A stretch of 64,000 bases of DNA, taken from Eledone cirrhosa (Eukaryota). Both the position numbers and the translations under genes were made by a program. The stretch's first letter is position 1. The number at the start of each line of letters is the position of its first letter. The notes beneath the pieces were generated by a model. It made no database searches. It was given only the letters and a program-made list of their open reading frames with translations, and was not told where the DNA came from. The stretch lies in NCBI GenBank assembly GCA_964016885.1, contig OZ024748.1, forward strand, positions 41,168,001-41,232,000, in the 5' to 3' direction. Of this stretch, positions 1,326-58,475 are shown in pieces.

Positions 1326-1572
1326 AGTTGAAGTTGTAAGGTATGTCAAATCTATCTATTTATAAGACTGTTTATATTGTATTTTGTCTGAAGAAGGCAT
1401 ACCATATTTTTAATATGATATCCCTGAAATATATATAATGAAATAAATATGGTTTTATAAATATAGTTTCCATTTATTTAATATCGTAAATATACTCCAA
1501 ATACTTGTTGAGTGCTTTTATATCAGTTATAAATATTTACTCGTTGTCACCCAACAATTTAAATAAAACTTT
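1326..1572 (+). mobile_element. Inverted Penelope-type terminal repeat (pLTR) joined to the truncated 5' end of the PLE
   Basis: Contains a hammerhead motif on the strand opposite the ORF; near-identical sequence recurs at 43660-44110. Inverted 5' pLTRs are a known PLE arrangement. Confidence 0.7.
1380..1445 (+). ncRNA. Minimal type-I hammerhead ribozyme motif
   Basis: TATTTTGT-CTGAAGA-[AGGCATACCATATT..AATATGATATCCCT stem II]-GAAA-TATATA-TA-ATGAAATA; stem I pairs with G-U pairs, stem III is palindromic. Confidence 0.8.
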
Positions 1573-1574
1573 GC

Positions 1575-1597
1575 ATATATATTATATATATATATAC

Positions 1598-1642
<45 letters not shown>

Positions 1643-1726
1643 ATTATATATATATATTATATATATATATTATATATATATATATTATATATATATATAT
1701 TATATATATATATTATATATATATAT

Positions 1727-1758
<32 letters not shown>

Positions 1759-1801
1759 ATATATATATAATATATATATATTATATATATATTATATATA
1801 T

Positions 1802-1832
<31 letters not shown>

Positions 1833-1983
1833 TATATATTATATATATATATATATATAATATATATATATATATATTATATATATATTATATATATATA
1901 TATATTATATATTATATATATATATATATATTATATATTATATATATATATATATTATATATTATATATATATATTATATATT
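1575..1983. repeat. (TA)n-type microsatellite
   Basis: Directly visible. Confidence 0.95.
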
Positions 1984-2323
1984 ATAATATAAGATCAAAA
2001 GATGGTTAAAGGAGTTCAATATATTTTATTATGCGCATTTCAAAAACAAACATCATCAAACAATAATATTTGTGTTTTCATCAGATAAAACAGGAGAACA
2101 TGATATGAAGGCTAAAAAAACACTTGTTGATAGTGCAGTTTTAAATCAACATATATGTTGATTTAAAACTGCACTATCAACAAGTGTTTTTTTAGCCTTC
2201 ATATCATGTTCTCCTGTTTTATCTGATGAAAACACAAATATTATTGTTTGATGATGTTTGTTTTTGAAAGGCGCATAATAAAATATATTGAACTCCTTTA
2301 ACCATCTTTTGATCTTATATTAT
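1984..2323. repeat. 340-bp spacerless palindrome carrying a hammerhead motif in each arm
   Basis: Centre CAACATATATGTTG (2147-2160); arms are reverse complements with one mismatch that I could see (2037/2270). Confidence 0.93.
2217..2283 (+). ncRNA. Minimal type-I hammerhead ribozyme motif (mirror copy at 2024-2090 on minus strand)
   Basis: TTTTAT-CTGATGA-[AAACACAAAT...GTTTGTTTTT]-GAAA-(G/T)GCGCA-TA-ATAAAA. Confidence 0.75.
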
Positions 2324-2417
2324 GCATACTCCAGTCCCACAAACTGTAGAGTGCTTCTTATCCGATATCTGCATTGCTTTATTGTACTACAATAAAACTC
2401 ACCTCCTACATATATAT

Positions 2418-2490
<73 letters not shown>

Positions 2491-2518
2491 ATATATATAT
2501 TATATATATATATATTAT

Positions 2519-2559
<41 letters not shown>

Positions 2560-2560
2560 A

Positions 2561-2960
2561 AGGCACATAGCTTAGTGGTTAGAGCATTGGCCTTGCAATC
2601 GAAAGGTTGTGAGTTCAATTCTCATACCGGGTGATGTGTTGTTTCCTTGAGCAAGACACTTTATTTCACATTGCTCCAGTTTACTCAGCTGTAGAAATGA
2701 GATGGTAGGGACTGGGGTCCCTATCATTCCACTGCAAAGTGGTCGTGGAGGTGCCATGGCAAAAAAAAGCACCCAGCCCACACTGTACAGTGGACGTGTA
2801 GGTGCCACGGAAAAAAGAAGCACCCAGCACGCACTGTAAATGAGGTTGGTGTTAGGAAGGGCATCCAGCTGTAGAAATCAAGCCAGAATCAGTTCCCGTC
2901 CCACCCTTGCAAGCACGGAAAAGCAGACGTAAAATGAAATGAATGATGATGATGATGATA
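2561..2960 (+). mobile_element. tRNA-derived SINE (CORE-like centre, LINE-like 3' tail ending in (GAT)n)
   Basis: A box TAGCTTAGTGG, B box GAGTTCAATTC, CCTTGAGCAAGACACTTTA core-like motif, tail GGAAGGGCATCCAGCTGTAGAAA...(GAT)n. Confidence 0.8.
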
Positions 2961-3071
2961 ATTATAACTTCGTGTACAGATAATTTTACATACACAATAA
3001 CAAAATATAAACAAAGGTATTTGTTTCACGAGGCTAGATAAGGATAAATATATAAGAACCCTAGAGCAAAT

Positions 3072-3099
3072 CCCGAGCAATGCCGGGCCATTCTGCTAG
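3072..3099 (+). mobile_element. Helitron-like 3' terminus
   Basis: Hairpin CCCGAGCAATGCCGGG followed by ...CTGCTAG|T; the same motif occurs at 46140-46167. Confidence 0.6.
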
Positions 3100-3479
3100 T
3101 ATTACATATAGTTAATAAATGAAACAAAACAAATGCAGGAATGCAAAAATAGGTTGAGGCTTGGAGGAGGGTTCAATGTTTGAGACAGAGGTCTTTCATC
3201 AGAAAAGTTTGGATAAGGAGAGAGCAAATAGATATAAATCTAATCGAAGGCATTAGTTAATATCCTACATTCCATTGTTAGAAGTAAAACTCTCAATACA
3301 ATATTGGACTTTTATTCTGAACCTAAAATATTACATCATTGATCCCGTCTCTCTCTCTCTCTCATCCCCTGTCTGTCTGTCTCTCTCTCCCTCTCTCTCT
3401 CTCTCTCAGCCTGTCTCTCAGACTCATCCACCCTCTCTTTCTCTCTCGCTCACTCACACAAATTGTTTCTGATTATCTC

Positions 3480-3925
3480 TACCATCCCCACTCCACCATT
3501 ACACCACCTCCACACACCCACTGCCCCCACCACTACACCACCTCAGCACTCCCACTGCCCCTACCCCCACCACTACACCACCTCCACACAGCCACTGCCC
3601 CCCCACCACAACCACTATACCACCTCCACTGCCCCTACCCCCACCACTACACTCCCACTGCCCCTACCCCCACCACTACACTCCCACTGCCCCTACCCCC
3701 CACCACTACACCACCTCCACACACCCACTGCCCCCCACCACAACCACTATACCACCTCCACTGCCCCCCCACCACAACCACTATACCACCTCCACTGCCC
3801 CCATCCCACTACACCACCTCTGCACCCCCCACCTCCACACTCCCACTATTACACTGCCACCACCACCCAACCGCTACACTCTCACACCCCCTACACCCCC
3901 CAACACATCTCCACCACCCCACCAC
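3480..3925. repeat. C-rich degenerate minisatellite (CCACTGCCCC...CCACCACTACACC)
   Basis: Directly visible repeated motifs. Confidence 0.85.
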
Positions 3926-4128
3926 CAGACAAATGGGTGTATATGAACTGGTTAATGAAGGACTACAATCAGTAGACTGCCAAAAGATTTTGGTTAGTTG
4001 GTATTGGTTAACAGTAAATAGAACCAGGATTGGTAAATATAAATACATTGGCTAGAGGTGGGGAGGGGGTAGTTCTTTCGTTATTCCTGTTCATTATATA
4101 TACACATATATATATATGTATATGTGTA

Positions 4129-4182
<54 letters not shown>

Positions 4183-4547
4183 CATAAACACACACACACA
4201 CATATATATTTATATACACACAGAAACAAACACACTATACACACACATATATATATACACGTCAATAATTATGTATAATCATCTATTCTTTTTTGTGTGC
4301 GTGGGTGGGACAATTCCCCTGAATACACAAACATTTATATATTTTTGATATTTATTCAGGCCATCACTAGCATGAGAAAAGCCCGACATTATTCCTTTTA
4401 AACACCAAACAATCTAAAACTAAACCTGGCTCTATCATAAAAAATTAACTGTTTCTTTTAAACTGTTAATCGAAAAAAAGTTTTACACAAAAATTTTATG
4501 TAAGAACCTTTGTTAAGTTATGTTCCAAACACTCCCAGTTTAATATT

Positions 4548-5240
4548 TATCGGTTGCTCTCCAACAGGTTTGCAATCGAGCCCCTAGCAGTGGTAACTTC
4601 TGGTGTCCTTGGCCCTAGGGCTATCTTCCTACTCACCACCATAGGCGCTGAGCTGGCAACCCCTAGCAGTGGTAACTTCTGGTGTCCTTGGCCCTAGGGC
4701 CACTTTCCTACTCACCACCATAGGCGCTGAGCTGGCAACCCCTAGCAGTGGTAACTTCTGGTGTCCTTGGCCCTAGGGCCACCTTCCTACTCATCACCCT
4801 AGGCGCTGAGCTGGCTACCCCTAGCAGTGGTAACTTCTGGTGTCCTTGGCCCTAGGGCCACTTTCCTACTCACCACCATAGGCGCTGAGCTGGCAACCCC
4901 TAGCAGTGGTAACTTCTGGTGTCCTTGGCCCTAGGGCCACCTTCCTACTCATCACCATAGGCGCTGAGCTGGCAACCCCTAGCAGTGGTAACCTCTGGTG
5001 TCCTTGGCCCTAGGGCCACCTTCCTACTCACCACCATAGGCGCTGAGCTGGCAACCCCTAGCAGTGGTAACTTCTGGTGTCCTTGGCCCTAGGGCCACCT
5101 TCCTACTCATCACCCTAGGCGCTGAGCTGGCTAGCTGCAGGTGTGAGCCTCGCGAGATGGAATGGCTCTTCCAGGGCATTTCCCTCACATTACTCCAGGG
5201 AAACGCCTTCTCCATTCTGTCCACTGGGGCTGTGGGGTGG
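4548..5240 (+). mobile_element. CRE-like non-LTR retrotransposon 3' fragment (restriction-like endonuclease C-terminus)
   Basis: Translates YRLLSNRFAIEPLAVVTSGVLGPRATFLL.T.GAELA...EPREMEWLFQGISLTLLQGNAFSILST, matching the F.P.A.E..G..G...QR.S.A..RGNA pattern; homologous to 19080-19700 and 63390-63865. Confidence 0.7.
4581..5133 (+). repeat. 79-bp minisatellite, 7 copies, inside the CRE-like fragment
   Basis: Units start at 4581, 4660, 4739, 4818, 4897, 4976 and 5055. Confidence 0.95.
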
Positions 5241-5273
5241 CCAGCACGTGGGACCCCATTTGCTCATAATACA

Positions 5274-6368
5274 GAGAGATGGGGAGGGTGAGAGAGATGG
5301 AGGCGATGACAGTGGGAGTTTGGCTCCTCTGTGTCAGGACCTGGTGTACATGTGAGATGGGGGGGGGGGAAGAGAGATGGAGGTGATGACAGTGGGAGTT
5401 TGGCTCCTCTGTGTCAGGACCTGGTGTACATGTGAGATGGGGGGGGGGAGAGATGGAGGTGATGACAGTGGGAGTTTGGCTCCTCTGTGTCAGAACCTGC
5501 TGTACATGAGAGATGGGGAGGGAGAGAGAGATGGAGGTGATCACAGTGGGAGTTTGGCTCCTCTGTGTCAGGACCTGCTGTACATGAGAGAGATGGGGAG
5601 GGTGAGAGAGATGGAGGCGATGACAGTGGGAGTTTGGTTCCTCTGTGTCAGGACCTGGTGTACATGAGAGAGATGGGGAGGGAGAGAGAGATGGAGGTGA
5701 TGACAGTGGGAGTTTGGCTCCTCTGTGTCAGGACCTGGTGTACATGTGAGATGGGGGGGGGGGGAGAGATGGAGGTGATCACAGTGGGAGTTTGGCTCCT
5801 CTGTGTCAGAACCTGCTGTACATGTGAGATGGGGAGGGAGAGAGAGATGGAGGTGATCACAGTGGGAGTTTGGCTCCTCTGTGTCAGGACTTGGTGTACA
5901 TGTGAGATGGGGAGGGTGAGAGAGATGGAGGCGATGACAGTGGGAGTTTGGTTCCTCTGTGTCAGAACCTGGTGTACATGTGAGATGGGGGGGGGGGGGA
6001 GAGATGGAGGTGATCACAGTGGGAGTTTGGCTCCTCTGTGTCAGGACCTGCTGTACATGTGAGATGGGGAGGGAGAGAGAGATGGAGGTGATCACAGTGG
6101 GAGTTTGGCTCCTCTGTGTCAGGACCTGCTGTACATGAGAGATGGGGAGGGAGAGAGAGATGGAGGTGATCACAGTGGGAGTTTGGCTCCTCTGTGTCAG
6201 GACCTGCTGTACATGAGAGATGGGGAGGGAGAGAGAGATGGAGGTGATGACAGTGGGAGTTTGGCTCCTCTGTGTCAGGACCTGCTGTACATGAGAGAGA
6301 TGGGGAGGGTGAGAGAGGTGGAGGTGATCACAGTGGGAGTTTGGCTCCTCTGTGTTCGGACCTGGTGT
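5274..6368. repeat. ~78-bp G-rich minisatellite (~14 copies)
   Basis: Unit GAGATGGGGAGGGAGAGAGAGATGGAGGTGATCACAGTGGGAGTTTGGCTCCTCTGTGTCAGGACCTGCTGTACATGT. Confidence 0.95.
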
Positions 6369-6369
6369 A

Positions 6370-6858
6370 TAATGGTTATGATGGTGATGATGATAATGGT
6401 TATGATGGTTATATTGGGGGGTGATGGTCATAATAATGGTCATGATGATTGTGATAGTGATGGTCATGAAGATGGAGGTGATGATGATGATGGTGATGAT
6501 GGTAATGATGATGATCGCGGTAGTGGTGATGATGATGATGGTAGTGGTGATGATGATGATGATGGTAGTGGTGATGGTGGTAATGATGTTGATGATGGTC
6601 ATGATGGTAATGATGATGATGGCAGTAGTGGTGATAATGATGATGGTGGTGGTGATGGTGGTGGTAGTGGTGATGATGATGATGATGGTGGTGGTGATGG
6701 TGGTAATGATGATGGTGATAGTGGTGATGATGGTGGTAATGATGATGATGGCCATGATGATGATGGTAGTGGTGATGATGGTGGTGGTGGTGGTGATGAT
6801 GATGATGATGGTAATGATGGTGATGGTAGTGATGTGATGATGGTGGTGGTGATGATGA
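6370..6858. repeat. (GAT/GGT)n trinucleotide tract
   Basis: Directly visible. Confidence 0.93.
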
Positions 6859-6886
6859 TATATCTTGAGATCTAACATGACAGCTG

Positions 6887-7819
6887 TTAACCCTGTCATT
6901 ACCATATTTCTAATGAAAGACACTGTCTATGTCATTAACCCTTTCATTACCATATTTCTAATGAAAGTCACTGTCTATGTCATTAACCCTGTCGTTACCA
7001 TATTTCTAAAGAAAGTCACTGTCTATGTCATTAACCCTTTCGTTACCATATTTCTAATGAAAGACACTGTCTATGTCATTAACCCTTTCATTACCATATT
7101 TCTAATGAAAGACAGTCTATGTCATTAACTCTTTCATTACCATATTTCTAATGAAAAACACTGCCTATGTCATTAACTCTTTCATTACCATATTTCTAAT
7201 GAAAGACACTGTGTATGTCATTAACCCTGTCATTACCATATTTCTAATGAAAGACACTGTCTATGTCATTAACCCTGTCGTTACCATATTTCTAAAGAAA
7301 GTCACTGTCTATGTCATTAACCCTTTCGTTACCATATTTCTAGTGAAAGACACTGTCTATGTCAGTAACCCTTCCATTACCATATTTCTAATGAAAGACA
7401 CTGTCTATGTCATTAACCCTTTCATTACCATATTTCTAATGAAAGACACTGTCTATGTCATTAACCCTTTCATTACCATATTTCTAATGAAAAACACTGC
7501 CTATGTCATTAACCATTTCATTACCATATTTCTAATGAAAGACACTGTCTATGTCATTAACCCTTTCATTACCATATTTCTAATGAAAAACACTGCCTAT
7601 GTCATTAACCATTTCATTACCATATTTCTAATGAAAGACACTGTCTATGTCATTAACCCTTTCATTACCATATTTCTAATGAAAGACACTGTGTATGTCA
7701 TTAACCCTTTCATTACCATATTTCTAAAGTAAGTCACTGTCTATGTCATTAACCCTTTCATTACCATATTTCTAATGAAAGACAGTGTCTATGTTGTTTA
7801 ACCCTTTCCTTACCATATA
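6887..7819 (+). repeat. 48-bp minisatellite (~19 copies) beginning TTAA-CCCT
   Basis: Unit TTAACCCTTTCATTACCATATTTCTAATGAAAGACACTGTCTATGTCA. Confidence 0.95.
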
Positions 7820-8239: not shown

Positions 8240-8291
<52 letters not shown>

Positions 8292-10827: not shown

Positions 10828-11103
10828 CACACAGAGAAATGTATATATATTTCTGTGTGTGTATATATATATATATATTACACACACAGAAATGTATATA
10901 TATTTCTGTGTGTATATATATATATTTCTGTGTGCGTATATATATATATATTACACACACAGAAATGTATATATATTTCTTAGAACAAAATTATTATTAA
11001 TGTTTTGCTGTTCATAACAATTGGAATCGAAAAATTACTTTTGAAATTATTAGTTATTTTACTAATGCTTAGATATGTAAAAATGAAGCAATGTTTCTAA
11101 TAA

Positions 11104-11292
11104 TTGTTTCTACTTTTGGCACAAGGCCAGCAATTACCCAGTACATTACTGGTACTTTATTTTATCGACCCCGTGAGGATGAAAGGCAAAGTTGACCTCG
11201 GCGGTATTTGAACTCAGACCGTAAAGGGACGTAACTCCATGCTATGAAGCATGGTGTCCGACTCTTTACAGATTCTGCCAATCCACTGCCCT
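11104..11292 (-). mobile_element. tRNA-derived SINE (family A)
   Basis: Minus strand: TGGCAGAATC...GAGTTCAAATACC...GCCTTTCATCCT..CGGGGTCGATAAAATAAAGTACCAG...CTGGCCTTGTGCC; many copies in this window. Confidence 0.88.
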
Positions 11293-11719
11293 AATGTCTG
11301 TACGTAATGAGGGAGTGAGAGGGGAGAGAAAGAAAGGCAGAGGTGAAGTGACGAAGTGACTCTCTCCTCCTCCTCCATCTCCCCATTCGTCACAGCGATA
11401 GAGGGGAGGAATGTTAGTGTGTTACAAAGAGAAAGAGTGAGAGTGAGAGAAACAGACAGACTAAAAGAGAGGGATAGCTGGAGATAGCAACCACGCGCGC
11501 ACGTGTTTCCACTGTCGGACAGACAGACAGAAAAATTGCTGGTTATATATTATAAGGAGATGACATTTTAAAACAACAGAAACAAATGGAAAATTGAGAA
11601 AGAGAAATTGTTTAAAAAAGGATCAATTGACATGGAGAAACGGGGAATTTAAGAAAGGATATTAAATTCTATTTCGTTTTTTAACAAAACATGAATGAAA
11701 GAATTTAATGGGGAATTTA

Positions 11720-14610: not shown

Positions 14611-15675
14611 CTACCCACCTACCTACCCACCAACCAAACCCAATCTTTGCCTATCAATATTCTCTAGTCCCTAGTTTACAACCACCACCACCATCACACA
14701 CTACCCCACACTATTTACTCCCACCCCCCGCCACACTATTTACCCCCACCACCACCACACTATTTACTCCCACCACCACCACACTATTTACCCCCACCAC
14801 CACCACCACACTATTTACCTCACCACCACCTGACATGTTCTTCAGTAATCTTGGAAATGGAAGTGAATCAAAATATGAAAGAGAGGGGGGGGGGGGCGAA
14901 AGAGATGAGGAGAAAGAGAGAGTTTGTATGTTTGTAGAAAACATTGTATGAAGCTGTTCAATCAGGAGCAATTGATAACAACAACAACAAAGATATTATT
15001 GGCAAGGTTTTGGCAGTAGGATCTAAGATTGTCTGATCAACCTAGTTTTGGTAGTAAAACCATTCCACTTCACTTCTTCTACTAAAGCTTTGAGAAAGAA
15101 GAGAAAAGGAAAGTATGAACATCACAGAATCTCATTGGATTATAAGTCTAATGAGAAGCATTGACTGGAAAGTCTAAAAGACTTAATCCCTAGCCTGATT
15201 TACTCTTATGATACTCGGTCACCTAAACCAGCCCTGCCCCACACCCTCAGTCTACAAAGATCTTTATATTGAAGTCTTTATCATCATTACCGTTTAATGT
15301 CCATTTCTGTTCCACACTAAAATGGGTTAGACGAGTTATCTTGTGAGAAATACCAGGTCAGGTGACCATGTCTTGCTCGCACAGAACTGATTTTGCCTTG
15401 GTTTCTACAGCTGGATGCCCTTCCCAGTGCCAACCACATTTACAAAGAGTACTGGGTGCTTTTTGTTGTGTCTCCTACAAGACCACTTTAAAATCTTTTG
15501 TTACCAAACTGTCTGAAACTGGCCCTCATTTTACAATACAAAGCTGTATATTTTGTCAAAAATCCTTCCAGAATAATTTTATGTAAAAACCTTTGTTAAG
15601 TTATGTTCCAAACTTCAGTTTAATAATGAAAAAAAAAATGCATTTTACTGAATTCCTTCAAATGATGTGAAAATC

Positions 15676-16207
15676 ATAGGTAGTGTCTTTCATTAAAAAT
15701 ATGGTAATGAAAGGGTTAATGACATAGACAGTGTCTTTCATTAGAAATATGGTAATGAAAGGGTTAATGACATAGGTAGTGTCTTTCATTAGAAATATGT
15801 TAATGAAAGGGTTAATGACATAGACAGTATCTTTCATTAGAAATATGGTAATGAAAGGGTTAATGACATATGTAGTGTCTTTCATTAGAAATATGGTAAT
15901 GAAAAGGTTAATGACATAGGTAGTGTCTTTCATTAGAAATATGTTAATGAAAGGGTTAAAGACATAGGTAGTGTCTTTCATTAGAAATATGTTAATGAAA
16001 GGGTTAATGACATAGACAGTATCTTTCATTAGAAATATGGTAATGAAAGGGTTAATGACATAGATAGTGTCTTTCATTAGAAATATGGTAATGAAAGGGT
16101 TAAAGTGTTTATATTTATCTAATATAAACACTTTAAGAACCTTTGTTAAGTTATGTTTCAAGCAGCAACAGTGTCTTCCATTAGACATGTAATAATGAAA
16201 GGGTTAA
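15676..16207 (-). repeat. 48-bp minisatellite, same family as 6887-7819, inverted
   Basis: Reverse complement of the same unit, ending AGGG-TTAA. Confidence 0.93.
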
Positions 16208-20139: not shown

Positions 20140-20149
<10 letters not shown>

Positions 20150-20410
20150 TAAAAAAATAATGAATAAAACAATGAAACAGTTCCTTATATTAAACAAAAA
20201 AAGTTCATTATTTAACGATCGTTTCTAGGACATATATGTGTTAGAATTGGCATGCATATTCAAAAGATCTTTGTACAAAATTATACAAACTATCAAAGAG
20301 AATATACATACCAACACATATATATGCTGTCTTCAGAAATAAATGAACTTTTTTTGTTTAATATAAGGAACTGTTTCATTGTTTTATTCATTATTTTTTT
20401 AATATTTTAT
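20140..20410 (-). ncRNA. Hammerhead ribozyme motif with long stem II, enclosed by ~70-bp inverted repeats
   Basis: Minus strand GTTCATTTATTT-CTGAAGA-[CAGCATATATATGTGTTGG...CTAACACATATATGTCCTA]-GAAA-CGATCG-TT-AAATAATGAAC; arms 20140-20213 and 20337-20410. Confidence 0.72.
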
Positions 20411-20694
20411 CTTGACTCTGTATTCCGTTTATCTTTCACCGAAAGTGATCTCTTCTTTCCATGATATCCGGATTACATTGAGTTCTTCATACGGATTGGA
20501 CACTACCGTAAACTTTTGGTAGATTTATCTACATATATATATATATATAGATAGATACATACATACATATACACATACATACTTTCATCATCAACATTTA
20601 ATGTCTATTTTCTAAATATATAATTTGAGGGGGAAAATTTTGAGGAAAACTTCAGGGAAAATTTTTTGAGAAAAATTTTGAGGAAATTTTTTGA

Positions 20695-21188: not shown

Positions 21189-22133
21189 TCTGTTAGACAC
21201 GCAGTGACTAACAACAGAATGTTTTAAGTCTGCGTGTCTGACATACATGCGTAGCTTATGAATAAAAAATTCAAGGGGTATCGCTGGCCGTGGTGATCCC
21301 TCCCAAACATCTTTTGTAATGTATCTTCTTATTGGCTAATTTCATCGTCTTATTGGCTAATCAACCAGCGAGAGTAATTGTTGCTCAAAAGCATCCGCCA
21401 CTTTGTTTGCACGTTTATTTATCGTTTCGCTTTTGAATCTTCCTCCAGTATTTCGTCGTTTATCATCAAAATATTTTTCTCATTTTGGTAAGTTATATTG
21501 TTAATTTATATATGATTTTTTAAATTTATATTTACTACTAAAAGTCTGAAAATATTTTTATACATCTTGCAATAATATTTATAAGATCATTTATAAAATA
21601 ATTATATAATCTAATTACATTACAATAATTTATTATTAATATATATCATGTTTAACTAGAGTTATTACAAGCGTTGCCTTAACAAAATATATACTAGACC
21701 TGAAAAATGCGCAAGCTCAAAAGAGCCACAGAATGTTATAATAAACCTTCAAAAGTGTGGGACTAGAGTTGTTGCTCAAAAAATATTGTAACCATTATCT
21801 ATTGTACACTCTGTGGCATCCTTTTATAAAAAAGAGACTCATAATGAATTCAAGACGACATGATAATTATTTAAGCTAATGTATCTCATGTTAGATGTTT
21901 ATTAATGATTAATACGAAATGCACTTAAACTGAATTCTATATTATAAATTCACTTAAATAATCATTGTGTCGTCTTGAGTTCGTTATGAGTCTCTTTTTT
22001 ATAAAAGGATGCCACAGAGTGTACGATAGATAATGATTACAATATTTTTGAGCAACAACTCTAGTCTCACACTTTTGAAGGTTTATTATAACATTCTGTG
22101 GCTCTTTTGAGCTTGTGTATTGTTCAGGTCTAG
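21189..22133 (+). mobile_element. Helitron-like insertion with internal inverted copy of its 3' end
   Basis: A|TC ... CTAG|T junctions with no TSD; removal restores the satellite GACTGATTAAGAC. Inverted repeat 21693-21875 versus 21955-22134. Confidence 0.75.
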
Positions 22134-24875
22134 TTAAGACTGATTAAGACTAAGGTTGATTATGACTGATTAAGACTAAGATTGATTAAGACTAAGATTG
22201 ATTATGATTGATTAAGACTGATTAAGACTAAGATTGATTATGATTGATTAAGACTGATTAAGACTAAGGTTGATTAAGACTAAGGTTGATTATGATTCAT
22301 TAAGACTGATTAAGACTAAGATTGATTATGACTGATTAGGACTAAGATTGATTATGACTGATGAGGACTAAGATTGATTAAGACTAAGACTGATTAAGAC
22401 TAAGATTGATTATGACTAAGATTGATTAAAACTAAAATTAATTAAGACTAAGATTGATTATGACAGATTAAGACTAAGATTGATTATGACTGATTAGGAC
22501 TAAGATTGATTAAGACTAAGACTGATTAAGACTAAGATTGGTTATGACTGATTAAGACTAAGATTGATTAAGACTGATTAAGACTAAGATTGATTAAGAC
22601 TACGGTTGATTATGATTGATTAAGACCGATTAAGACAGACTGATTAAGACTAAGATTGATTATGACTAAGATTGATTATGACTGATTAAGACTAAGATTG
22701 ATTATGACTGATGAGGACTAACATTGATTAAGACTAAGACTGATTAAGACTAAGATTGAATATGACTGATTAAGACTAAGATTGATTATGACTGATTAAG
22801 ACTAAGATCGATTAAGACTAAGACTGATTAAGACTAAGACTGATTAAGACTAAGATTGATTATGACTGATTAAGACTAAGATTGATTATGACTGATTAAG
22901 ACTAAGATTGATTATGACTCATTAAGACTAAGATTGATTATGACTGATTAAGACTAAGATTGATTAAGACTAATTAAGACTAAGATTGATTAAGACTAAA
23001 ATTGATTATGATTAAGATTGATTATGACTGATTAAGACTAAGATTGATTAAGACTAAGATTGATTATGACTGATTAAGACAAAGATTGATTATGACTAAG
23101 ATTGATTATGACTGATTAAGACTAAGATTGATTAAGACTAAGATTGATTATGACTGATTAAGACAAAGATTGATTATGACTAAGATTGATTATGACTGAT
23201 TAAGACTAAGATTGATTAAGACTAAGATTGATTATGACTGATTAAGACTATAATTGATTATGATTAAGATTGATTATGACTGATTAAGACTAAGATTGAT
23301 TAAGACTAAGATGTATTATGACTGATTAAGACTAAGATTGATTATGACTGATTCAGACTAAGATTGATTATGACTAAGATTGATTAAGACTAAGATTGAT
23401 TAAGACTACGATTGATTAAGACTACGATTGATTAAGACAGACTGATTAAGACTAAGATTGATGATTACTAAGATTGATTATGACTGATTATGACCAAGAT
23501 TGATTATGAAAAAGATTGATTATGACCAAGATTGATTATGACCAAGATTGATTATGACCAAGATTGATTATGACCAAGATTGATTATGACCAATATTGAT
23601 TATGACCAAGATTGATTATGACCAAGATTGATTATGACCAAGATTGATTATGACCAAGATTGATTATGACCAAGATTGATTATGACCAAGATTGATTATG
23701 ACCAAGATTGATTATGACCAAGATTCATTATGACCAAGATTGATTAAGACTGATTAAGACTAAGATTGATTATGACTAAGATTGATTCTGACTAGGATTG
23801 ATTCTGACTAAGATTGATTATGACTGATTGAGACTAAGATTAAGACTAAGATTGATTAAGACTAAGATTGATTATGACTAAGATTGATTATGACTGATTA
23901 AGACTAAGATTGATTAAGACTAAGATTGATTATGACTAAGATTGATTATGACTGATTGAGACTAAGATTAAGACTAAGATTGATTATGCATGATTAAGAC
24001 TAAGATTGATTATGACTAAGATTAATTATGACTGATTAAGACTAAGATTGATTAAGACTAAGATTGATTATGACTAAGATTGATTATGACTGATTAAGAC
24101 TACGATTGATTATGACTGATTAAGACTAAGATTGAATATGACTGATTATGATTATGACTGATTAAGAATAAGATTGATTATGATTAAGATTGATTATGAC
24201 TGATTAAGACTAAGATTAATTATGACTAAGATTGATTATGACTGATTAAGACTAAGATTGATTATCACTGATTATGATTACAATTGATTATGGCTGATTA
24301 AGACTAAGATTGATTAAGACTAAGATTGATTATGACTAAGATTGATTAAGACTAAGATTGATGATTACTAAGATTGATTATCACTGATTATGACCAAGAT
24401 TGATTATGACCAAGATTGATTATGACCAAGATTGATTATGACCAAGATTGATTACGACCAAGATTGATATGACCAAGATTGATTATGACCAAGATTGATT
24501 ATGACTAAGATTGATTATGACTGATTAAGACTAAGATTGATTATGACTAAGATTGATTAAGACTAAGACTGATTAAGACTAAGATTGATTATGACTAAGA
24601 TTGATTATGACTAAGATTGATTCTGACTAACATTGATTCTGACTAAGATTGATTATGACTGATTGAGACTAAGATTAAGACTAAGATTGATTATGACTGA
24701 TTAAGGCTAAGATTGATTAAGACTAAGATTGATGATTACTAAGATTGATTATGACTGATTAAGACTAAAATTGATTATGACCAAGATTGATTATGACTGA
24801 TTAAGACTAAGATTGATTAAGACTAAGATTGATTATGACTAAAATTGATGACAGATTAAGACTAAGATTGATTAA
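22134..24875. repeat. 10/15-bp satellite (GATTAAGACTAAGATT / GATTATGACT); left remnant at 21140-21188
   Basis: Directly visible; includes homogeneous GATTATGACCAAGATT sub-blocks. Confidence 0.97.
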
Positions 24876-39167: not shown

Positions 39168-39352
39168 ATGGCAGAATCGGTAGAGCAGGGGGACAAAATG
39201 CTTAGCAACTATTAGTTACATTCTGAGTTGAAATCCCACTGAGGTCCACTCTACCTTGCATCCTTCCAGGGTTGATAAAAGTACCAGTAATGTACTGAGG
39301 TCAGTATAATCTATTTATCCCTCACATTGCTGGCCTTGGGCCTAGATTAGAA
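39168..39352 (+). mobile_element. Diverged SINE (family A)
   Basis: TGGCAGAATCGGTAGAGC...CTGAGTTGAAATCC...CATCCTTCCAGGGTTGATAAAAGTACCAG...TGCTGGCCTTG. Confidence 0.7.
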
Positions 39353-43594: not shown

Positions 43595-43654
<60 letters not shown>

Positions 43655-43659
43655 AAGTT

Positions 43660-44111
43660 ATATTTAAAATTGTTGGGTTACAACTAGTAAATATTTATAA
43701 CTGATATAAAAGCACTCGACAAATATTTGGAGTATATTTACAATATTAAATAAATGGAAAACTATATTTATAAAACCATATTTATTTCATTATATATATT
43801 TCGGGGATATCATATTAACAATATGCTATGCCTTCATCAGACAAAATACAATATAAACAGTTTTATAGACAAATAGGTTCGACATACCGTTATAACATCA
43901 ACTTCATTTGAAGAGGTTTACGCTAGCGTAAACCTCTTCAAATGAAGTTGATGTTTATTACGGTATGTTGAATATATTTATCTATAAAACTGTTTATATT
44001 GTATTTTGTCTGATGAAGGCATAGCATATTGTTAATATGATATCCCCGAAATATATATAATGAAATAAATATGGTTTTATAAATATAGTTTTCCATTTAT
44101 TTAATATTGTA
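43660..44111. mobile_element. Palindromic solo Penelope-type pLTR with two hammerhead motifs (44002-44067 +, 43784-43849 -)
   Basis: Centre GAAGAGGTTTACGCTAGCGTAAACCTCTTC; arms match 1326-1572; core CTGATGA...GAAA-TATATA-TA-ATGAAATA. Confidence 0.82.
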
Positions 44112-44715: not shown

Positions 44716-44827
44716 ATAATTGGAAGCTTAGTAAAATCGAAGCTTTGGCTATGGGCAAGCAAAGTCGCCCTACAATATGAATGAGTTAGCAAAGCACTCA
44801 ATAAGGGTAGGTCCTTAGAGTAATAAC

Positions 44828-44960
44828 TGTTTCTACTGTTGGCAAAAGGCCAGCAATTACTCGGTGCATTACTGGTACTTTATTTTATCTACCCCGTAAG
44901 GATGAAAGGCAAAGTTAACCTCGGCGGGATTTGAACTCAGAATGGCAAGGGCCGTAACTC
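44828..44960 (-). mobile_element. SINE family A, 5'-truncated
   Basis: Homology to 11104-11292. Confidence 0.85.
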
Positions 44961-45124
44961 TAGTAATAACATACGTTTAAATAGCTTGACAAATTGAACA
45001 TTGTGGTAGGCAAAACCTAACACACAATATCAAAGTAACGAAAGATCTAACAGATATATATATTAGAAAGTGAGGTTTTTTTACAAAATGAAAAATAACC
45101 GAGGTGTCCTACACGAGTGAAAGT

Positions 45125-45403
45125 ATAAGGAAAAAAGATGAAATCGAAAATGCAACTGGAGTCTTATTTAAAAAAATATATATATATTTATTTGGTTCCT
45201 TTACCGGTTTCGCAGTTCTTCTGCTTTTCAAAAGTAGAGTTGAGATGGAGGGTCTGTATGTGAGAAAAACCACAGACCCTCCATCTCAACTCTACTTTTG
45301 AAAAGCAGAAGAACTGTGAAACCGGTAAAGGAACCAAATAAATATATATATATATTTTAAAATAAGACTCCAGTTGCATTTTCGATTTCATCATTTTTCC
45401 TTA
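45125..45403. repeat. Foldback (~130-bp arms, ~14-bp spacer) with degenerate hammerhead-like core
   Basis: Arms 45125-45257 and 45272-45403; CTT-TTGAAAA-GCAG(AAGAA)CTGY-GAAA-CCGG-TA-AAG. Confidence 0.85.
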
Positions 45404-46167
45404 TCTATATATATAAAACTGTGGTTGTCTGTCTGTCTATCGATTTTTGGCACACATCTCCTCTTAGAATCTCTCACGGAATTGCACCGAAATTGCTAAA
45501 CTTGTACATTGAGCCCTAGCGAAGACATCGGAAAAAAAAATTTCAAATTGACCCACCCTATGTGACGAAATCGAATATAATGTATCGATTTTTGAGCGTA
45601 AGTTATCAGTTATTTCCCTTTGTTCTGTTTACATTGAGCGTCTTACGTAAAAAATTACGCTGGCTTTCTCAGTTGTCGAGCCAGCAAAATATTGACCTGC
45701 AAAATTCATCAGTTCGAACACTAAGCTTCCGTTTTGCTTCATTTCCATTTAAAAGCATTTTAAAACAATATTTGTACTTGAAAACAAGTCTATTTAAAGA
45801 CTACGTAAAACAAGCAAATATTTCAGGCGTGCAGAGAGGTGATATAGGCGTGCAGACAGACATAACTGATAATTTGGTTACGCTAATGTTTTTCTCTGCG
45901 TTGCAGTGTTTACATTTTCGATCTTTGTTAATAAATAACCAGTGCAGTTTTTATCCCCAGCATCCTCTTTTGTTATAACATTCGGGTTATCGTTATGTTT
46001 TCTTAACTTCATAAGGCATATTGTTGGTTGAGGGAATATTAATCAAAAACACCACATGCAAGTCTGCACAGTAGACATTACAGTTTTTAAGCCAAAAAAG
46101 AAACTTAACATTGTAACTTTAACACAGCTACTGAGCGACCCCGAGCAACGCCGGGCTTTACTGCTAG
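45404..46167 (+). mobile_element. Non-autonomous Helitron-like element
   Basis: A|TCTATATATATAAAACTG...GTCTGTCTGTC start; CCCGAGCAACGCCGGG hairpin plus CTGCTAG|T end. Confidence 0.8.
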
Positions 46168-47424
46168 TATATTATATATATAGATACGCATATATACACA
46201 GGTCTGTATATATACACTTATATACAGATGTATTCCACATATGGTAGGGGTCTGTATATACACATATACACAGATTTATATATACACACTATATAAACAC
46301 ATGTAGAATATAACTGATAGAGGACTGTTTATATATACACACTATATACACGCACATTGTAGAATATTACGGGTGTGGGCCTGTTACCAGCTTTATACAG
46401 ATGTGTATATATATATAGACATGTAGTATACTACTGGTATATATATATTATAGATAAAGCAGAGGTTTAAGCACACCTAGAAGATGAGAACTAAATGTAT
46501 TTATCAGTAGTATATTACTGGTATATATATAATAGCGCAAAGTATGAAAACTAAATGTTATCTGTAGGAAATAGCATTGAAGACTTTCATTGTTGGTAGG
46601 AAAGATATCGTACAGGACAGAGTAACACACACACATACACACACATGCTTACACACACATACATACACTTAAACAAATACACATGCTCACAAACGTACAC
46701 AAATAAATGCACAAACATACAGACTTAGAGAGAGAGTGACCAACGCACACACACACAAGACAAATGCACACGTACAAACACACACAAACAAATGCATACA
46801 CATACACACATACAAACACATGCACAAATGCCCACACTATCAAACGCATGCACAGACACATTATATATGTGTGTGTGTGTGCGTGCCTGTATGTATATAA
46901 AGATAAGGAGTTACAGACAGCAGAGTAAATGAAAATAAAGTAATTTATGAATGATTTCTTATAGATATGGCAGAAGGCCAAAGATGTGTCGGGAGCGGAG
47001 TTTTATTTTAAATCTCTTGAAATATTTTTATGGAAACGTTTTCGATTGGAATGATTGTTGGGGAACATCAAAAACAACAACAACATCTAATTTAGGCACA
47101 AGGCCAGCAAACGTTGGGGGATGAGGAAAGTTGATTAAATCGACCCCAGTGCATGACTGGTACTTCATTTTAACACGCGACAAAGAGTTAGGTTTACATC
47201 AAGGAATGGGGGGACATCACCAACGAGAAAACAGTAGAAATAACAATAACAATATCTGTTTCAACACACGTTTTCAGATGAGAAATCTTGCAAAATAAAT
47301 TCAAAAATAACAAGTATTTGCTGATAACAGTAATAATAGGAGAGTTAGGGTGACTTGAAGTCCGGTGTCTTGGTAAAAACTTCATCATATTACAGACATC
47401 TGTATTTGTTTGGTGATAAAGCAA

Positions 47425-48603: not shown

Positions 48604-48687
48604 ATATAAATGCCAACAAGAACAACAAAATGTTATGGGAGCGGGGGGGGGGGGGGGGGGTTAATCATATATACTTATAATAATAAT

Positions 48688-49010
48688 GGTTTCTACTTTG
48701 GGCACAAGGCCAGCAATTATCCCAGTGTATTACTGGTACTTTATTTTATCGACCCCGTAAGGATGAAAGGCAAAGTTAACCTCGGCGGGATTTGAACTCA
48801 GAATGACAAGGGCCATAACTCTATGCGTCAAAGCATAGCGTCCGACCCTCTACCGTTACTGCCAATCCACCGCCCTTATACTTATAATAATAATTGTTTC
48901 TACTTTCGGCACAAGGCCAGCAATTACCCAGTACATTACTGGTACTTTATTTTTTCGACCCCGTAAGGATGAAAGGCAAAGTTGACCTCGGCGGGATTTG
49001 AACTCAGAAT
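48688..49010 (-). mobile_element. Two tandem SINE family A copies (48688-48876 full length; 48895-49010 truncated)
   Basis: Homology to family A; 18-bp direct repeat TATACTTATAATAATAAT flanks the full-length copy. Confidence 0.88.
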
Positions 49011-49159
49011 GGAAGGTTTCTTTTATTGGTACCAGGGAAAGGGGGAAAGTCGATTAATCATCCCCAGAGCACTACTGGTACTTTATTCTATCAACTGGAA
49101 AGCCACAAGGGTACAATATATCCCACTGTTCCACTGTAGAAGGTCCTGGGATAAGTCGA

Positions 49160-52128: not shown

Positions 52129-52129
52129 G

Positions 52130-52391: not shown

Positions 52392-52859
52392 TGCGTGTGT
52401 TTATATATATATAATGAAAATATATAGAAATAAAAACAATTGAATAATAATTCCGACCTTCTTGGTAAAATATTCGCAATCATACTTCATGTCTGGTAAT
52501 AAGAATCTCCAGTGATATAATACCATTAGTATAGAAGACAAATGCGAAAGAAAGTACTAATAAATACTAATAACTTAGTAGAACTATCTATTAGTAGTTT
52601 GTTTTTGGTGGTGGTCTGGTTAGTAGGTAGGTTGGCTGGTCTGGTTAGTAGGGAGGTTGGCTGGTTGTCAGCTGTCTTTCTAAATATGTCCAGTGGACGA
52701 GAGAAGGTTTAAAGGTTTGAAAACTTCGTAGTTAACTGGTGGTTGTTGTTGTTTAGTTGGCCAGGAATGACATTCCTGAAAACAATGGACAAGAGGTGGT
52801 AGCTGTGGTGGTGGTGGTGGGATGAGGAAAAAACTGTGGGAGAAGGAGGTGATTATACT

Positions 52860-54110: not shown

Positions 54111-54476
54111 TAATGGTTGTGTGATGAGTGGAAGGGTTACAGAAAAAATTGTTTTTGTAAGTGTGTGATCACCACCACAACAACAGCAACCACCACCATA
54201 ACCACAACAACAGTAGTAGTAGTAGCAATAGCAACCACCACCACCACCATAACTACAACAGTAGTAGTAGTAGCAACAATCACCACCACCACAACTACCA
54301 TAACTATCCCCCCCTCCACCACCACCACCACCAACAACAACAACAACCCCACCACCACAAGATAATATGTGAAAAACCCACCAGTTTTAAATATGACTAA
54401 GGTTTTCAGGTTTTTTTTCTTTGTTCTCTATAATTTTGTTGGGCTTTTTTCTTCTTAGTTAATTCCTTATTTTGAA

Positions 54477-55212
54477 ACCAACCAGCCAACTATCCAACCA
54501 GCCAACCAACCAACCAACCATCCAACCAGCCACCTAACCAACCAACCAACCAGCCACCTAACCAACCAGCCACCAAACCAGCCAACCAGCCACCTAACCA
54601 ACCAACCAGCCAGCCACCTAACCAACCAGCCACCTATCCCCAGCCAACCAGCCACCTAACCAACCAACCAGCCACCTACCCCCAGCCAACCAGCCACCTA
54701 ACCAACCAACCAACCAACCAGCCACCTAACCAACCAACCAGCCACCTAACCAGCCACCTAACCAACCAACCAGCCAGCCAACAAACCAACGACCCAACCA
54801 GCCACCCAACCAACCAACCAGCCACCTAACCAACCAGCCACCCAAAAACCAACCAGTCAGCCAACCAACCAACCACCCAGCCACCTAACCAACCAACCAG
54901 CCAGCCAACCAACCAACGACCCAACCAGCCACCCAACCAACCAACCAGCCACCTAACCAACCAACCAGCCACCCAAAAACCAACCAGCCACCCAACCAAC
55001 CACCCAGCCACCTAACCAACCAACCAGCCAGCCAACCAACCAACGACCCAACCAGCCACCCAACCAACCAACCAGCCACCTAACCAACCAACCAGCCACC
55101 CAAAAACCAACCAGCCACCCAACCAACCAACCAGCCACCTAACCAACCAACCAGCCACCCAAAAACCAACCAACCAACCAGCCACCTAACCAACCAACCA
55201 GTTAGCCAACCA
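54477..55212. repeat. (CCAA/CCAG)n tetranucleotide-based array
   Basis: Directly visible. Confidence 0.93.
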
Positions 55213-56103
55213 CAACCATCACCCCACAACTACCTCCACCGCCACCAACACCACCACCACTACTACCACTACTACCACCACTACCACCACCACCACTACT
55301 GACATCAAACTTAACACACTAGTCATCTGTTCTACCTCTCTTATGACAGTTATCTGAAAATGAATTACAGGTTGTATATAGTGTGGATATATGTATATAG
55401 TGTGAACGTATGTAGCGTATATAGTGTGGATATATGTAGTGTATATAGTGTGAATGTATGTATGTAGCGTATATAGTATGAATGTAGTGTGTATAGTGTG
55501 ATATGTATGTAGTGGGTTTTTATGTGTACACGTGTATGTGTACGTGTGTACAGATATATTGATTCAGTCGCACACACACACACACACACGGATACATATA
55601 GACTAATGCCTACAAAATATACGTTTACACACATTCTGACAAGCATGCACACACACACACACACGTAATTTACATGCATAAAGTTCAGTGCTATTGGTAC
55701 ACTCTATATGTATGTGTGTAATAATAGAATGGACATACGGGGAACTACCCCCCAGAAACGATCGTAAAATAATCAGTTGTACTATGAATTAACCGTTTTT
55801 TGTTTAATTTCATTGTTTTACTATTTGTATATATATATATATATTCAGGGTAATTCCATTATAACGAAATTCACGGGGTATAAAAAAATTCGATGTAACG
55901 TAAAACTCTTTATAACGAGATCGACCGAAACACATCGAGCATACGGCCGGGATTGAAAAGAATTTCGTTATACTGAGAAATTCGTTATAACGGAATCTTA
56001 ACTATATGTAAATATATATATATATATACACAGTGGCGGACTGGGTCTAAAAATATTGATTGCCAGGAGATATGGAATGCTATCATTTAATTTTTATAAT
56101 GAA

Positions 56104-56875
56104 CTAGCATTAAATCCCGGCGTTGCTCGGGGTCAGTAAATTACCAAAGTTAGGTTGCACCACCCATTTTATGGCAGCACTTTTTTGTCTGCCAGGCACT
56201 GGGTGAATGAATCGCAGACCTGGACTGCCGAAGCAGGAGCTGCGCCAGCAGTGACAATTGTAGTTTCGCCTATGGATATCTCTGTGCAAAGAAGTGTTGA
56301 AATTTATTGTTTCACAGTACTTGCGCAACACGCGCGTAGACGATGCCAGCCGAACAACAGAGCTGCGATGGAGTTGTTCTGCATGGTTGTCTAATGTGTG
56401 TTTTCTAAATTTAAGACAGTAGGGAGCGGTGTGATATGGGGGAGAGTTAGCTGCTGTTTCTAGCAGGTTTAGTGACCTCATAGAGAATATTATTGTGTAT
56501 AATAAATGAACTGATACTTCTATGTTCCACGTTCGTTGATAGATGTTTTAAAAAAGATTTATCGCTATTTTTTTTTGTTGTTGAATAAATTTATCTGTTG
56601 CTTTTGAATATGGGGGGGAGTTAGCTGCTGTTTCTAGCAGGTTTAGTGACCTCATAGAGGATATGTTTTCTAAATTTAAGACAGTCGGGAGTGGTGTGAT
56701 ATGAGGGAGATTTAGCTGCTGTTTCTAGCAGGTTTAGTGACCTCATAGAGGATATTATTGTGTATAGTAAATGAACTGATACTTCTTTCTTCCACGTTCG
56801 TTGATAGATGTTTTCAAAAAGATTTATCGCTATTTTTTTTGTTGTTGAATAAATTTATCTGTTGCTTTTGAATAA
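56104..56875 (-). mobile_element. Helitron-like 3' end plus adjacent ~265-bp tandem duplication (5' limit uncertain)
   Basis: Minus strand CCCCGAGCAACGCCGGG...TGCTAG|T; 56400-56610 is duplicated at 56665-56875. Confidence 0.55.
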
Positions 56876-57222
56876 TTATTGTTTCGTATGAAATGTAATA
56901 AGTTCTCTTTGTCATTGACGTAAATAAATATTTGACCGTTCCACACTCAAAAACAAACGTTCTCTCTCTCTCTCTTAAAGTTTAAGGGGAGTAGAGAGAG
57001 GTAATCAGATTCTATTAGAGGGATAAAGCGTCATGTATTTAGTTTTATCGATTATTTCCGTAATTGTGGGTGAGTGTGAATGAAATAAATAGTCGTTGAC
57101 CTAAGTTAGACCATTTACAACATTCTTACAGACTTTGGGTCGAATCGATTTGAAATTGTGCAAATGTATAAACATGGAACATGCACACACACACCACCAC
57201 CACCACCACCACCACCACCACC

Positions 57223-57254
<32 letters not shown>

Positions 57255-57282
57255 CAACAACAATCTGCCGTTTATAGATAAT

Positions 57283-57652
57283 TGTTTCTATTTTAGGCAC
57301 AAGGCCAGCAATTACCCAGTGCATTACTGGTACTTTATTTTATCGACCCCGTAAAGATGAAAGGCAAAGCAAACCTCGGCGGGATTTGAACTCAGACCGT
57401 AAAGGGACGTAACTATGCTGGAAAGCATGGCGTCCGACTCTCTACCGATACTGCCAATCCACCACCTTTTATAGATAATGTTAAATAACTGGTTCTTCTT
57501 TTGGCACAAGGCCAGCAATTATCCCAGTGTATTACTGGTACTTTATTTTATCGACTCCGTAAGTATGAAAGACAAAGTTAAGCTCGGCGGGATTTGAACT
57601 GTCCGTAAAGGAACGTGACTCTGTGCTGCAAAGCATGGCGTCCGACCCTCTA
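57283..57652 (-). mobile_element. Two adjacent SINE family A copies
   Basis: Homology to family A; TTTATAGATAAT direct repeat flanks 57283-57467. Confidence 0.85.
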
Positions 57653-57694
57653 TCAGAAGTCGACCCTAAATATTACTAATAGCTCTAGGAAAGC

Positions 57695-58020
57695 TATGAA
57701 CGACACCACTTGGATTTTGAAAGTAGGTTTATAATTATCAATTTTCATTATACTTTTGTAGCTGTCTCGGTGGCCTAGTTGGAGGAATCATAGACGGTGG
57801 TGATCCTGGTCTGGAGTAGGGTTCCCGGTAAACCTTTTCAGTTTTTTCCTATTGGTTGTAAAATAAAAACTGAAAAAGGTTACATGTACCTCTTGACCAG
57901 GATTGAACCCAAGACTAGGATCTCCACCGTCTCTAGTACCTACCGCTAGGCTACAGAGACAACTACGAAAATCTTATAAACATACTTTCAAAACAAAGTG
58001 TTGTGGTGTAGTTCATGTCT
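57695..58020. repeat. Diverged foldback with tRNA-like arms
   Basis: GTAGCTGTCTC.GTGGCCTAG...AGACGGTGG.GATCCT.GTCT pairs with AGACTAGGATCTCCACCGTCT...CTAGGCTACAGAGACAACTAC; inner stem AACCTTTTCAGTTTTT/AAAAACTGAAAAAGGTT. Confidence 0.7.
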
Positions 58021-58044
58021 ATCTTAATGTTATTGCTACTACCT

Positions 58045-58106
<62 letters not shown>

Positions 58107-58110
<4 letters not shown>

Positions 58111-58475
58111 TGTTATACTTTGGGAGGGTCATGTTGCCAATAAGAAACACACGCACCAGTTGCTTTCACTTCAATTTAATTTAATATATATTTATAAATT
58201 TACAAATTTATAAATTTCTGGTTGGTTGGTTGGTTCCACAACCAGATAGTTGTTTATATATATATAGTCATAGTTCTTTCGTCACACACTCTGTGACCTC
58301 TTCAGTGACTGGGGATTTCTATCTGGGGACAACTATCTGGTTGTGGAACCAACCAACCAACCAGAAATTTATAAATTTGTAAATTTATAAATATATATTA
58401 AATTAAATTGAAGTGAAAGCAACTGGTGCGTGTGTTTCTTATTGGCAACATGACCCTCCCAAAGTATAACAATAT
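58107..58475. repeat. Foldback with 147-bp arms and a hammerhead-like motif (58266-58310, minus strand) in the loop
   Basis: Arms 58107-58253 and 58329-58475; minus strand AGTCA-CTGAAGA-GGTCACAGAGTGTGTGAC-GAAA-GAAC-TA-TGACT. Confidence 0.85.

Follow-up and report, generated by a model that had tools for sequence, protein, structure and literature searches.

Hammerhead-bearing palindromes in an Eledone cirrhosa contig as short head-to-head insertions of Penelope-like element ends

We have analysed five palindromes, each carrying a hammerhead ribozyme, in a 64,000-nucleotide stretch of the Eledone cirrhosa genome (the window: positions 41,168,001-41,232,000 of contig OZ024748.1, in an assembly of 3.0 Gb). 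These palindromes are almost certainly short head-to-head insertions of the ribozyme-bearing pseudo-long terminal repeat (pLTR) ends of five protein-coding Penelope-like element (PLE) families. We consider it very likely that the whole is best explained by heavily 5′-truncated head-to-head insertions of PLE ends, probably made anew at each insertion. Additionally, we identified in four of the families a fixed 5′ site at which arms stop, and suggest that it probably marks the start of the element's RNA.

Results

Arms match the ends of protein-coding elements

The palindromes represent families A (43646-44111, together with 583-1578), B (1992-2411), C (58111-58528), D (20144-20535) and E (45054-45402). 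Copies elsewhere in the genome are given by locus (L-numbers), with L034 (A), L113 (B), L106 (D) and L115 (C and E) as references for mapping. The original prediction, made from the window alone, had proposed a link to the hammerheads of Penelope-like pLTRs, and this link is borne out: the arms match the ends of PLE copies with open reading frames (ORFs). Inverted arms enclose ORFs of 737 amino acids (aa) in A (L034), 800 aa in B (L278) and 784 aa in D (L106, its end frameshifted), and frames for reverse transcriptase (RT) and GIY-YIG lie between the arms of C (L115, L279 and L281) and E (L272). An 82-nt AT-rich query found no match in the genome, and exact word patterns (23-34 nt per family) were used in its place. 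They gave 4,154 matches for A, 9,816 for B, 21,885 for C, 5,060 for D and 12,461 for E, and none for the reversed words that served as controls.

Proteins of families C and E reach or exceed the Pfam cut-off for GIY-YIG and fall below that for RVT_1. A CX2-5CxxC linker and a CCHH within GIY-YIG, which is a Neptune/Nematis feature, occur in P0003, P0004 and the L272 ORF, and families C and E are probably of Neptune/Nematis type, that is, of one of these two clades. In A, B and D, the predicted proteins carry YRDD and GIY-YIG-like motifs, and their homology to RT and GIY-YIG is supported by a BLAST match to the E protein (E = 2e-7) and by Atlas neighbours with GIY-YIG/RVT_1. The Hydra clade features given in section 11 of PMC8557442 are present in P0001 (family A), P0002 (family D) and the L278 ORF: DKT, a CxCx5C linker, CxxC and CxH, no CCHH, and RWK reading RWR or RWT. 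As P0002 has a frameshifted end, CxH was seen instead in L110. We therefore regard A, B and D as probable Hydra-type families, a placement that draws on the motifs, the BLAST match and the Atlas neighbours. Counting against it, none of these Hydra-type proteins gave an RT or GIY-YIG match in Pfam, and nothing was retrieved for them from Pfam or PDB. The AlphaFold model of P0001 was set aside, its predicted local distance difference test score being 43.9. The five families had been described as unrelated in primary sequence, which holds for DNA; for proteins it does not, as those of A, B and D share 44-53% identity.

Some PLE copies form giant palindromes whose arms span 2-3.7 kb and each hold part of the ORF (L031, L032, L110 and L115:5162-9527). 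Different PLE families also often lie within a few kilobases of each other or nested in each other's (TA)n flanks (L040, L037, L108, L113, L115, L272, L275 and L276), which may explain their high density in the window.

Hammerhead cores are present in all five palindromes

The five inverted repeats were all recovered at about the coordinates first proposed for them, in a window that is 62% masked as tandem repeat or gap, and a type-I minimal hammerhead core was found in every one. A structural descriptor identified five cores, all within these elements, against a mean of 0.18 (maximum 2) in 100 block shuffles and none in the reversed window. Owing to mismatches in stems II and III, the descriptor missed both cores of the A pair, the plus-strand core of B and that of D; these four were read by eye. 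No hammerhead family was among the 140 matches at E<=1 in an Rfam scan of the window, and the Rfam microRNA (miRNA) matches, which were below gathering score, reflect hairpins and microsatellites. Folds of isolated hammerheads were no better than those of shuffled sequences, except for stem II of D (for which the interval was short on its 5′ side).

Core boxes were intact in 73/73 arms of A, 32/39 of B, 25/34 of C, 51/53 of D and 55/67 of E. The cores had been described as intact or decayed; their presence stands, and that of E (45125-45403) is not decayed, being a U3-A8 covariant core, of the kind known from Schistosoma PLEs (PMC4209133), that is intact in most arms. The family D hammerhead (20214-20336; L106:1563-8110) is an unusual variant with a stem II of ~100 nt (z -6.3), U17 and a mismatched first stem II pair, and its stem III is palindromic and invariant in 51/51 intact arms.

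Insertions are head-to-head, one-tailed and mostly of a single source

Orientation and spacing were scored on the first 100 matches per family, taking neighbouring pairs at most 10 kb apart. Head-to-head orientation accounted for 152 of 166 adjacent pairs and same-strand orientation for 8/166, with tandem plus inversion seen in L034 and L106. The spacing of close pairs is continuous, from <100 bp to nearly 10 kb, and the long ones enclose ORFs. Orientation and ORF linkage together led us to reject the reading of the five palindromes as miniature inverted-repeat transposable elements (MITEs) or as non-LTR retrozymes, which are head-to-tail tandems of units that each bear a hammerhead.

Junctions and tails (the stretch from pLTR end to ORF start) were scored in 74 head-to-head pairs. 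Exactly one arm bears a tail in 66 of them, neither arm in six (one being the window copy of E, whose tail maps to L115) and both arms in two. Tails measure 53-128 nt. Almost every tail-less arm ends in (TA)n, and most flanks are likewise (TA)n, which would hide target-site duplication. No alleles were significantly linked to the tail-bearing arm. Arms overlap by microhomology at 43 junctions, meet bluntly at nine and are separated by insertions at 22, several of these templated from the arm start.

Fold-backs are a known artefact of long reads, and we saw no read across the window's own junctions. That the palindromes are artefacts of assembly or library preparation is nonetheless vanishingly unlikely: their arms stop at two fixed element ends with the tail on one only, they differ by a few substitutions, their junctions hold templated insertions, and the same two ends appear in independent DNA contigs. 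These contigs (four runs of one study, of unrecorded kind) contain loose ends at both 3′ ends of D, each followed by (TA)n; no strand-switch joint was listed in the four runs. Depth over L106:1570-2017 was ~10-20x that of the preceding bin in X1-X3, which fits the pile-up but is not a measure of copy number.

In A, B and D, the two arms of an insertion share a single source. At polymorphic positions, arms of the same insertion differ in 1/171 comparisons in D (random pairs, 41%), 43/727 in A (random, 21%) and 20/515 in B (random, 32%). Junctions with both arms at the fixed 5′ site described below were distinct in 10/13 cases in A, 11/11 in D, 7/8 in E and 3/4 in B. As subfamily alleles are shared within an insertion and junctions vary, we suggest that palindromes form at insertion from one source, and not by copying of whole palindromes. 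This reading is weakened by families C (74/520, or 14%; random, 35%) and E (106/474, or 22%; random, 31%), in which one source is less clear, and by the recurrence of identical junctions in A (4/13) and B (2/4).

The same recurrence would be expected of a separate non-autonomous palindromic class, as the original prediction had it, with PLE proteins re-inserting whole transcribed palindromes as units. Non-autonomous PLE derivatives do exist, according to parts of PMC8557442 and bioRxiv 10.64898/2026.07.22.740005, and both RT start sites lie within the short arms, as does the predicted start of the RNA. In E and B, roughly half of the short arms are nearer to other short arms, being as near to long copies in only 19/42 and 10/18 cases, respectively. 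However, in the young families A (31/33) and D (25/26), short arms are no farther from long copies than from other short ones, and share haplotypes with the long copies. The recurring junctions fall at 6-nt palindromes native to the element, at which joining by microhomology would converge, centres are mostly distinct (in D without exception, several with templated insertions), and spacings grade continuously into ORF-bearing elements. We thus consider a separate class very improbable.

A fixed 5′ end and an extra G suggest a transcription start

Pile-ups of arm starts were first met in loci chosen by BLAST, which are biased by query starts, and were retested on position-ordered matches. Starts fell within 6 nt of the modal site in 13/29 mapped arms of A, 15/28 of D and 16/30 of E (scan p<=1.5e-4, with one arm per insertion and an exponential null). 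For B, where the site was set before sampling, 16/30 arms and 10/24 insertions were on site. The modes are at L034:5150 (A), L113:4803 (B), L106:7911 (D) and L115:1964 (E). All four read C|A, which resembles an initiator, and they lie ~10, 40, 70 or 90 nt upstream of the ribozyme core, depending on the family.

At non-overlapping junctions of B and D, a G is present at -1, where the element has C, in 17/30 cases. After six ambiguous rows were dropped by hand (L049, L058, L078 and three from L170), the extra G was found in 12/24, compared with 27/137 (20%) at other truncation points (p ~0.001). Extra G from copying of the m7G cap is reported, in the sections of PMC4038843 used here, for L1 and other RTs. 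On this sequence evidence, the fixed site is probably the capped start of the element's uncleaved sense RNA, with the arms produced by run-off there.

Several results weigh against a capped start. Family C has no sharp pile-up (1/30 at the candidate site, p=0.11 against the exponential null), family A has no extra G (1/7 true arms), and in E the extra G cannot be scored, the native base next to the mode being G. The arm-start samples were the first 30 matches on one contig, and paired arms are not independent if snap-back of the first complementary DNA (cDNA) holds. Some of these points would suit a different view of the same PLE insertions, in which the pile-up reflects RT stalling, nuclease cutting or some other kind of processing: A lacks the G, C lacks a sharp mode, the D mode is inside stem I, and the A mode is beside a 6-nt palindrome. 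We find this view rather unlikely, as the distance between mode and ribozyme varies by family while all four modes read C|A, no mode coincides with the predicted cleavage site, A, B and D have no AG acceptor, and B and D have the extra G.

Specific causes of the pile-up were also rejected. Truncation at the ribozyme cleavage site occurred once only, in the window arm of D, and is the mode in no family; a splice acceptor does not fit A, B and D, in which no AG is present at the mode. Two further piles, at L115:8976 (C) and L113:4549 (B), are only apparent, and reflect divergence of the reference and not truncation.

Seven C arms start at L115:9126-9143. Words upstream of the ribozymes resemble promoter motifs, namely those of ETS, NRF1 and YY1 in C (L115:9090-9150) and CCAAT, E2F and E-box in E (L115:2260-2030, minus strand).

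Long hairpins would bury the ribozyme in three families

The original prediction had envisaged self-cleaved long hairpin RNA as a product. By folding, forming the ribozyme in read-through transcripts of A, B and E costs 71-101 kcal/mol relative to the hairpin (the B plus strand was left out), and in C and D, where the ribozyme lies in the loop, 6-7 kcal/mol. Thus, the idea is retained as a possibility for C and D; since the hairpin would bury the core in A, B and E, self-cleaved hairpins are unlikely as a general product. Similar minimal hammerheads are described, in passages of PMC4209133, as cleaving weakly and as dimers and, in passages of PMC11167929, as cleaving with the help of protein.

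Uncleaved hairpins are plausible substrates for ADAR or small interfering RNA pathways, by analogy with other animals (parts of PMC5625713 and PMC3846280); Penelope repeats are heavily edited in lizard, and octopus has a high genomic potential for double-stranded RNA (dsRNA), which is reported without repeat annotation (both in the same parts of PMC5625713). A rough extrapolation from the first 100 matches per family gives at least ~8,000 short palindromes in which each arm is an exact match, and the five in the window are far above the genome average that it implies.

Composition of the elements in the window

Family A is represented twice. At 43646-44111, a tail (43646-43738, minus strand; 99% to L034:1340-1432) adjoins a minus-strand arm (43739-43927; 97% to L034:5153-5342; hammerhead 43840-43791) whose 5′ end is at the modal site, followed by a tail-less plus-strand arm (43922-44111; 100% to L034:5153-5342; hammerhead 44010-44059). 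The two arms (43739-44111) overlap by a 6-nt palindromic microhomology. The second copy is a 5′-truncated ORF remnant (583-1317, minus strand; aa 440-676 of P0001; 86-89% by tblastn, and 87% to L034 by blastn) that enters an N gap (383-582); this remnant and the one-sided tails had been overlooked in the original prediction. Its inverted partner arm, a pLTR end (1316-1488, plus strand; 89% to L034:5168-5342), holds a third hammerhead copy that matches the descriptor (1388-1437), and is followed by a tail (1489-1578, plus strand, right end approximate; 90% to L034:1340-1435) and (TA)n.

The family B insertion comprises a tail-less minus-strand arm (1992-2154; 94% to L113; hammerhead 2084-2030) and a plus-strand arm (2153-2323; 95% to L113; hammerhead 2223-2277), both with 5′ ends at the modal site, and a plus-strand tail (2324-2411; 99-100% to one-sided tails in L276, L277 and L278) that precedes (TA)n. 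In D, the tail-less minus-strand arm (20144-20347; 96% to L106) has its 5′ end near the modal site and contains, by folding, the only whole hammerhead of the pair (20336-20214). Its short plus-strand partner (20337-20407) maps from L106:8041 and begins at the 3′ strand of stem I, the predicted cleavage site, the junction having formed through stem I complementarity; a plus-strand tail (20408-20535; 100% to L106:1847-1974) and (TA)n follow.

The E insertion begins with a minus-strand tail (45054-45124; mapping to L115:1742-1817, and 96-100% to tails in L272 and L274), continues with a minus-strand arm (45125-45257; 96% to L115; U3-A8 hammerhead 45231-45202) and ends with a tail-less plus-strand arm (45258-45402; 98% to L115:1962-1818; hammerhead 45298-45327) whose 5′ end is at the modal site. 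That of C has a single hammerhead, which is within the spacer (58305-58271, minus strand), in a tail-less minus-strand arm (58111-58324; 99.5-100% to L115). The shorter plus-strand partner (58329-58475; 100% to L115 from 9252) starts downstream of the hammerhead and is followed by a tail (58476-58528, plus strand; 94-100% to tails in L279-L281) and (TA)n. A lone C tail with the final pLTR bases is at 47246-47307 (plus strand; 87% to L115).

Other repeats in the window

Two further inverted repeats gave no match to the hammerhead descriptor. One, of ~440 bp (21693-22134), has a diverged centre, TA-like flanks and a MITE-like look. The other (58944-59349) has terminal inverted repeats of ~40 nt and TA flanks, with the right repeat present again in its interior (59093-59133); we take it to resemble a Tc1/mariner-type MITE. 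A dispersed repeat of ~200 nt, often in partial tandem and with a tRNA-like B-box on the minus strand, is probably a short interspersed nuclear element (SINE), and occurs at 11093-11295, 39169-39299, 44814-44962, 48670-49016, 57270-57657 and 62762-63252. Another probable SINE, derived from tRNA, has a tRNA-like head (2558-2740; Rfam tRNA, 36.8 bits) right after a (GA)n tract. The repeat adjoining the E palindrome (45403-46196) is also inserted in L106 (91-97%), and is not part of the PLE, as it is absent from other D copies. Additionally, a 48-nt tandem array occurs twice in opposite orientation (7116-7806 and 15670-16103; 91-93% complementary).

Discussion

The architecture that we describe is already published (in parts of PMC3846280, PMC4209133 and PMC8557442). 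Inverted pLTRs placed head-to-head, with a palindrome where they join and a tail on one side, are described in PMC3846280 and shown as typical in PMC8557442, and hammerhead pairs on opposite strands lie 100-700 bp apart in Schistosoma (PMC4209133). Like endonuclease-positive PLE insertions as presented in portions of PMC3846280, PMC8557442 and PMC2377424, those studied here have an inverted, 5′-truncated copy in head-to-head orientation, a junction palindrome, a tail on one arm, AT-rich targets, partial tandems and an initiator-like word in the pLTR. Unlike the insertions described in those portions, most are tiny on both sides, about half of the arms stop at one site per family, two families have an extra G, and tails are longer than the 30-40 nt given there. 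Our search found no report of a start-site pile-up or extra G in PLEs, although subscription papers were mostly outside it. These short insertions (stubs) represent five new PLE families and are of a known kind, to which the pile-up and the extra G make a modest addition that can be tested.

The ribozymes are similar to the minimal hammerheads of metazoan PLEs in the sections of PMC4209133 that treat them, being of type I with an extra base after A9, a palindromic short stem III and a U3-A8 variant. The D ribozyme differs from these in its long stem II, U17 and mismatched first stem II pair. Families A, B and D share motifs, hammerhead and (TA)n target with the Hydra clade as outlined in PMC8557442; in contrast to that outline, A is ~4 kb, compared with generally <3 kb, and each family here has thousands of copies. 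Stubs also resemble the non-LTR retrozymes of bioRxiv 10.64898/2026.07.22.740005, in the parts of it used here, in being short, non-coding and pLTR-derived with a type I hammerhead, but are head-to-head and continuous with coding copies.

We tentatively propose, on the basis of the genomic copies, that PLE RT may start near the 5′ end of a capped, uncleaved sense RNA, and that about half of copies may be strong-stop-like run-offs inserted as mirror pairs. Transcription would start within the pLTR, as reported in part of PMC2377424, and the RT/GIY-YIG protein would nick an AT-rich target. RT would begin within its own RNA at two sites 3′ of the ribozyme, the pLTR end and the tail end, on an uncleaved template, with both target strands cut and extended. 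Such a system is described in vitro for PAc (Poseidon) in sections of PMC11167929, where the tail is bracketed and defined by two internal RT starts, with uncleaved RNA as the chief substrate; those sections describe no head-to-head products or start-site run-off, and the PAc ribozyme overlaps the ORF start.

The RT would read across the ribozyme, still uncleaved, and about half of the time would run off at the capped 5′ end; in some cases, copying of the cap would leave the extra G. As the RT start sites would be just 150-330 nt from the RNA 5′ end, short run-off cDNA would be the default product. Longer arms would need a template that continues upstream, such as tandem or circular RNA, or a jump. 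The second arm could arise by priming on the opposite strand or by snap-back of the first cDNA, with the centre closed by microhomology or templated insertion. The ribozyme in the stub would be a passenger.

How head-to-head copies form, and on which template strand, is stated as open in parts of PMC3846280 and PMC11167929. The former proposes that a bidirectional pLTR promoter supplies an antisense template, on which synthesis is self-primed. Our junctions often have perfect palindromic centres, given the frequency of overlap, and both arms come from one source, as that proposal predicts. However, the fixed end and extra G belong to a sense-strand 5′ end, which argues against it, and the two 3′ ends match the in vitro RT starts on sense RNA in PMC11167929. 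Thus, we consider antisense self-priming improbable for these families.

Palindromes of this kind belong in annotations with PLE stubs, and not with MITEs or miRNA hairpins. They are a possible genomic source of dsRNA and, given the dsRNA potential of octopus noted in the cited parts of PMC5625713, are worth counting. A direct test of the template-strand question also becomes possible with young families that have copies in the thousands, a predicted start site each and a cap-like G. If arms do end by run-off, the fixed C|A end and extra G would settle sense versus antisense template for head-to-head PLE repeats, and four promoters would have been mapped from DNA alone. PLEs would then be a steady source of thousands of near-perfect 300-450 nt hairpins, feeding ADAR and small-RNA pathways.

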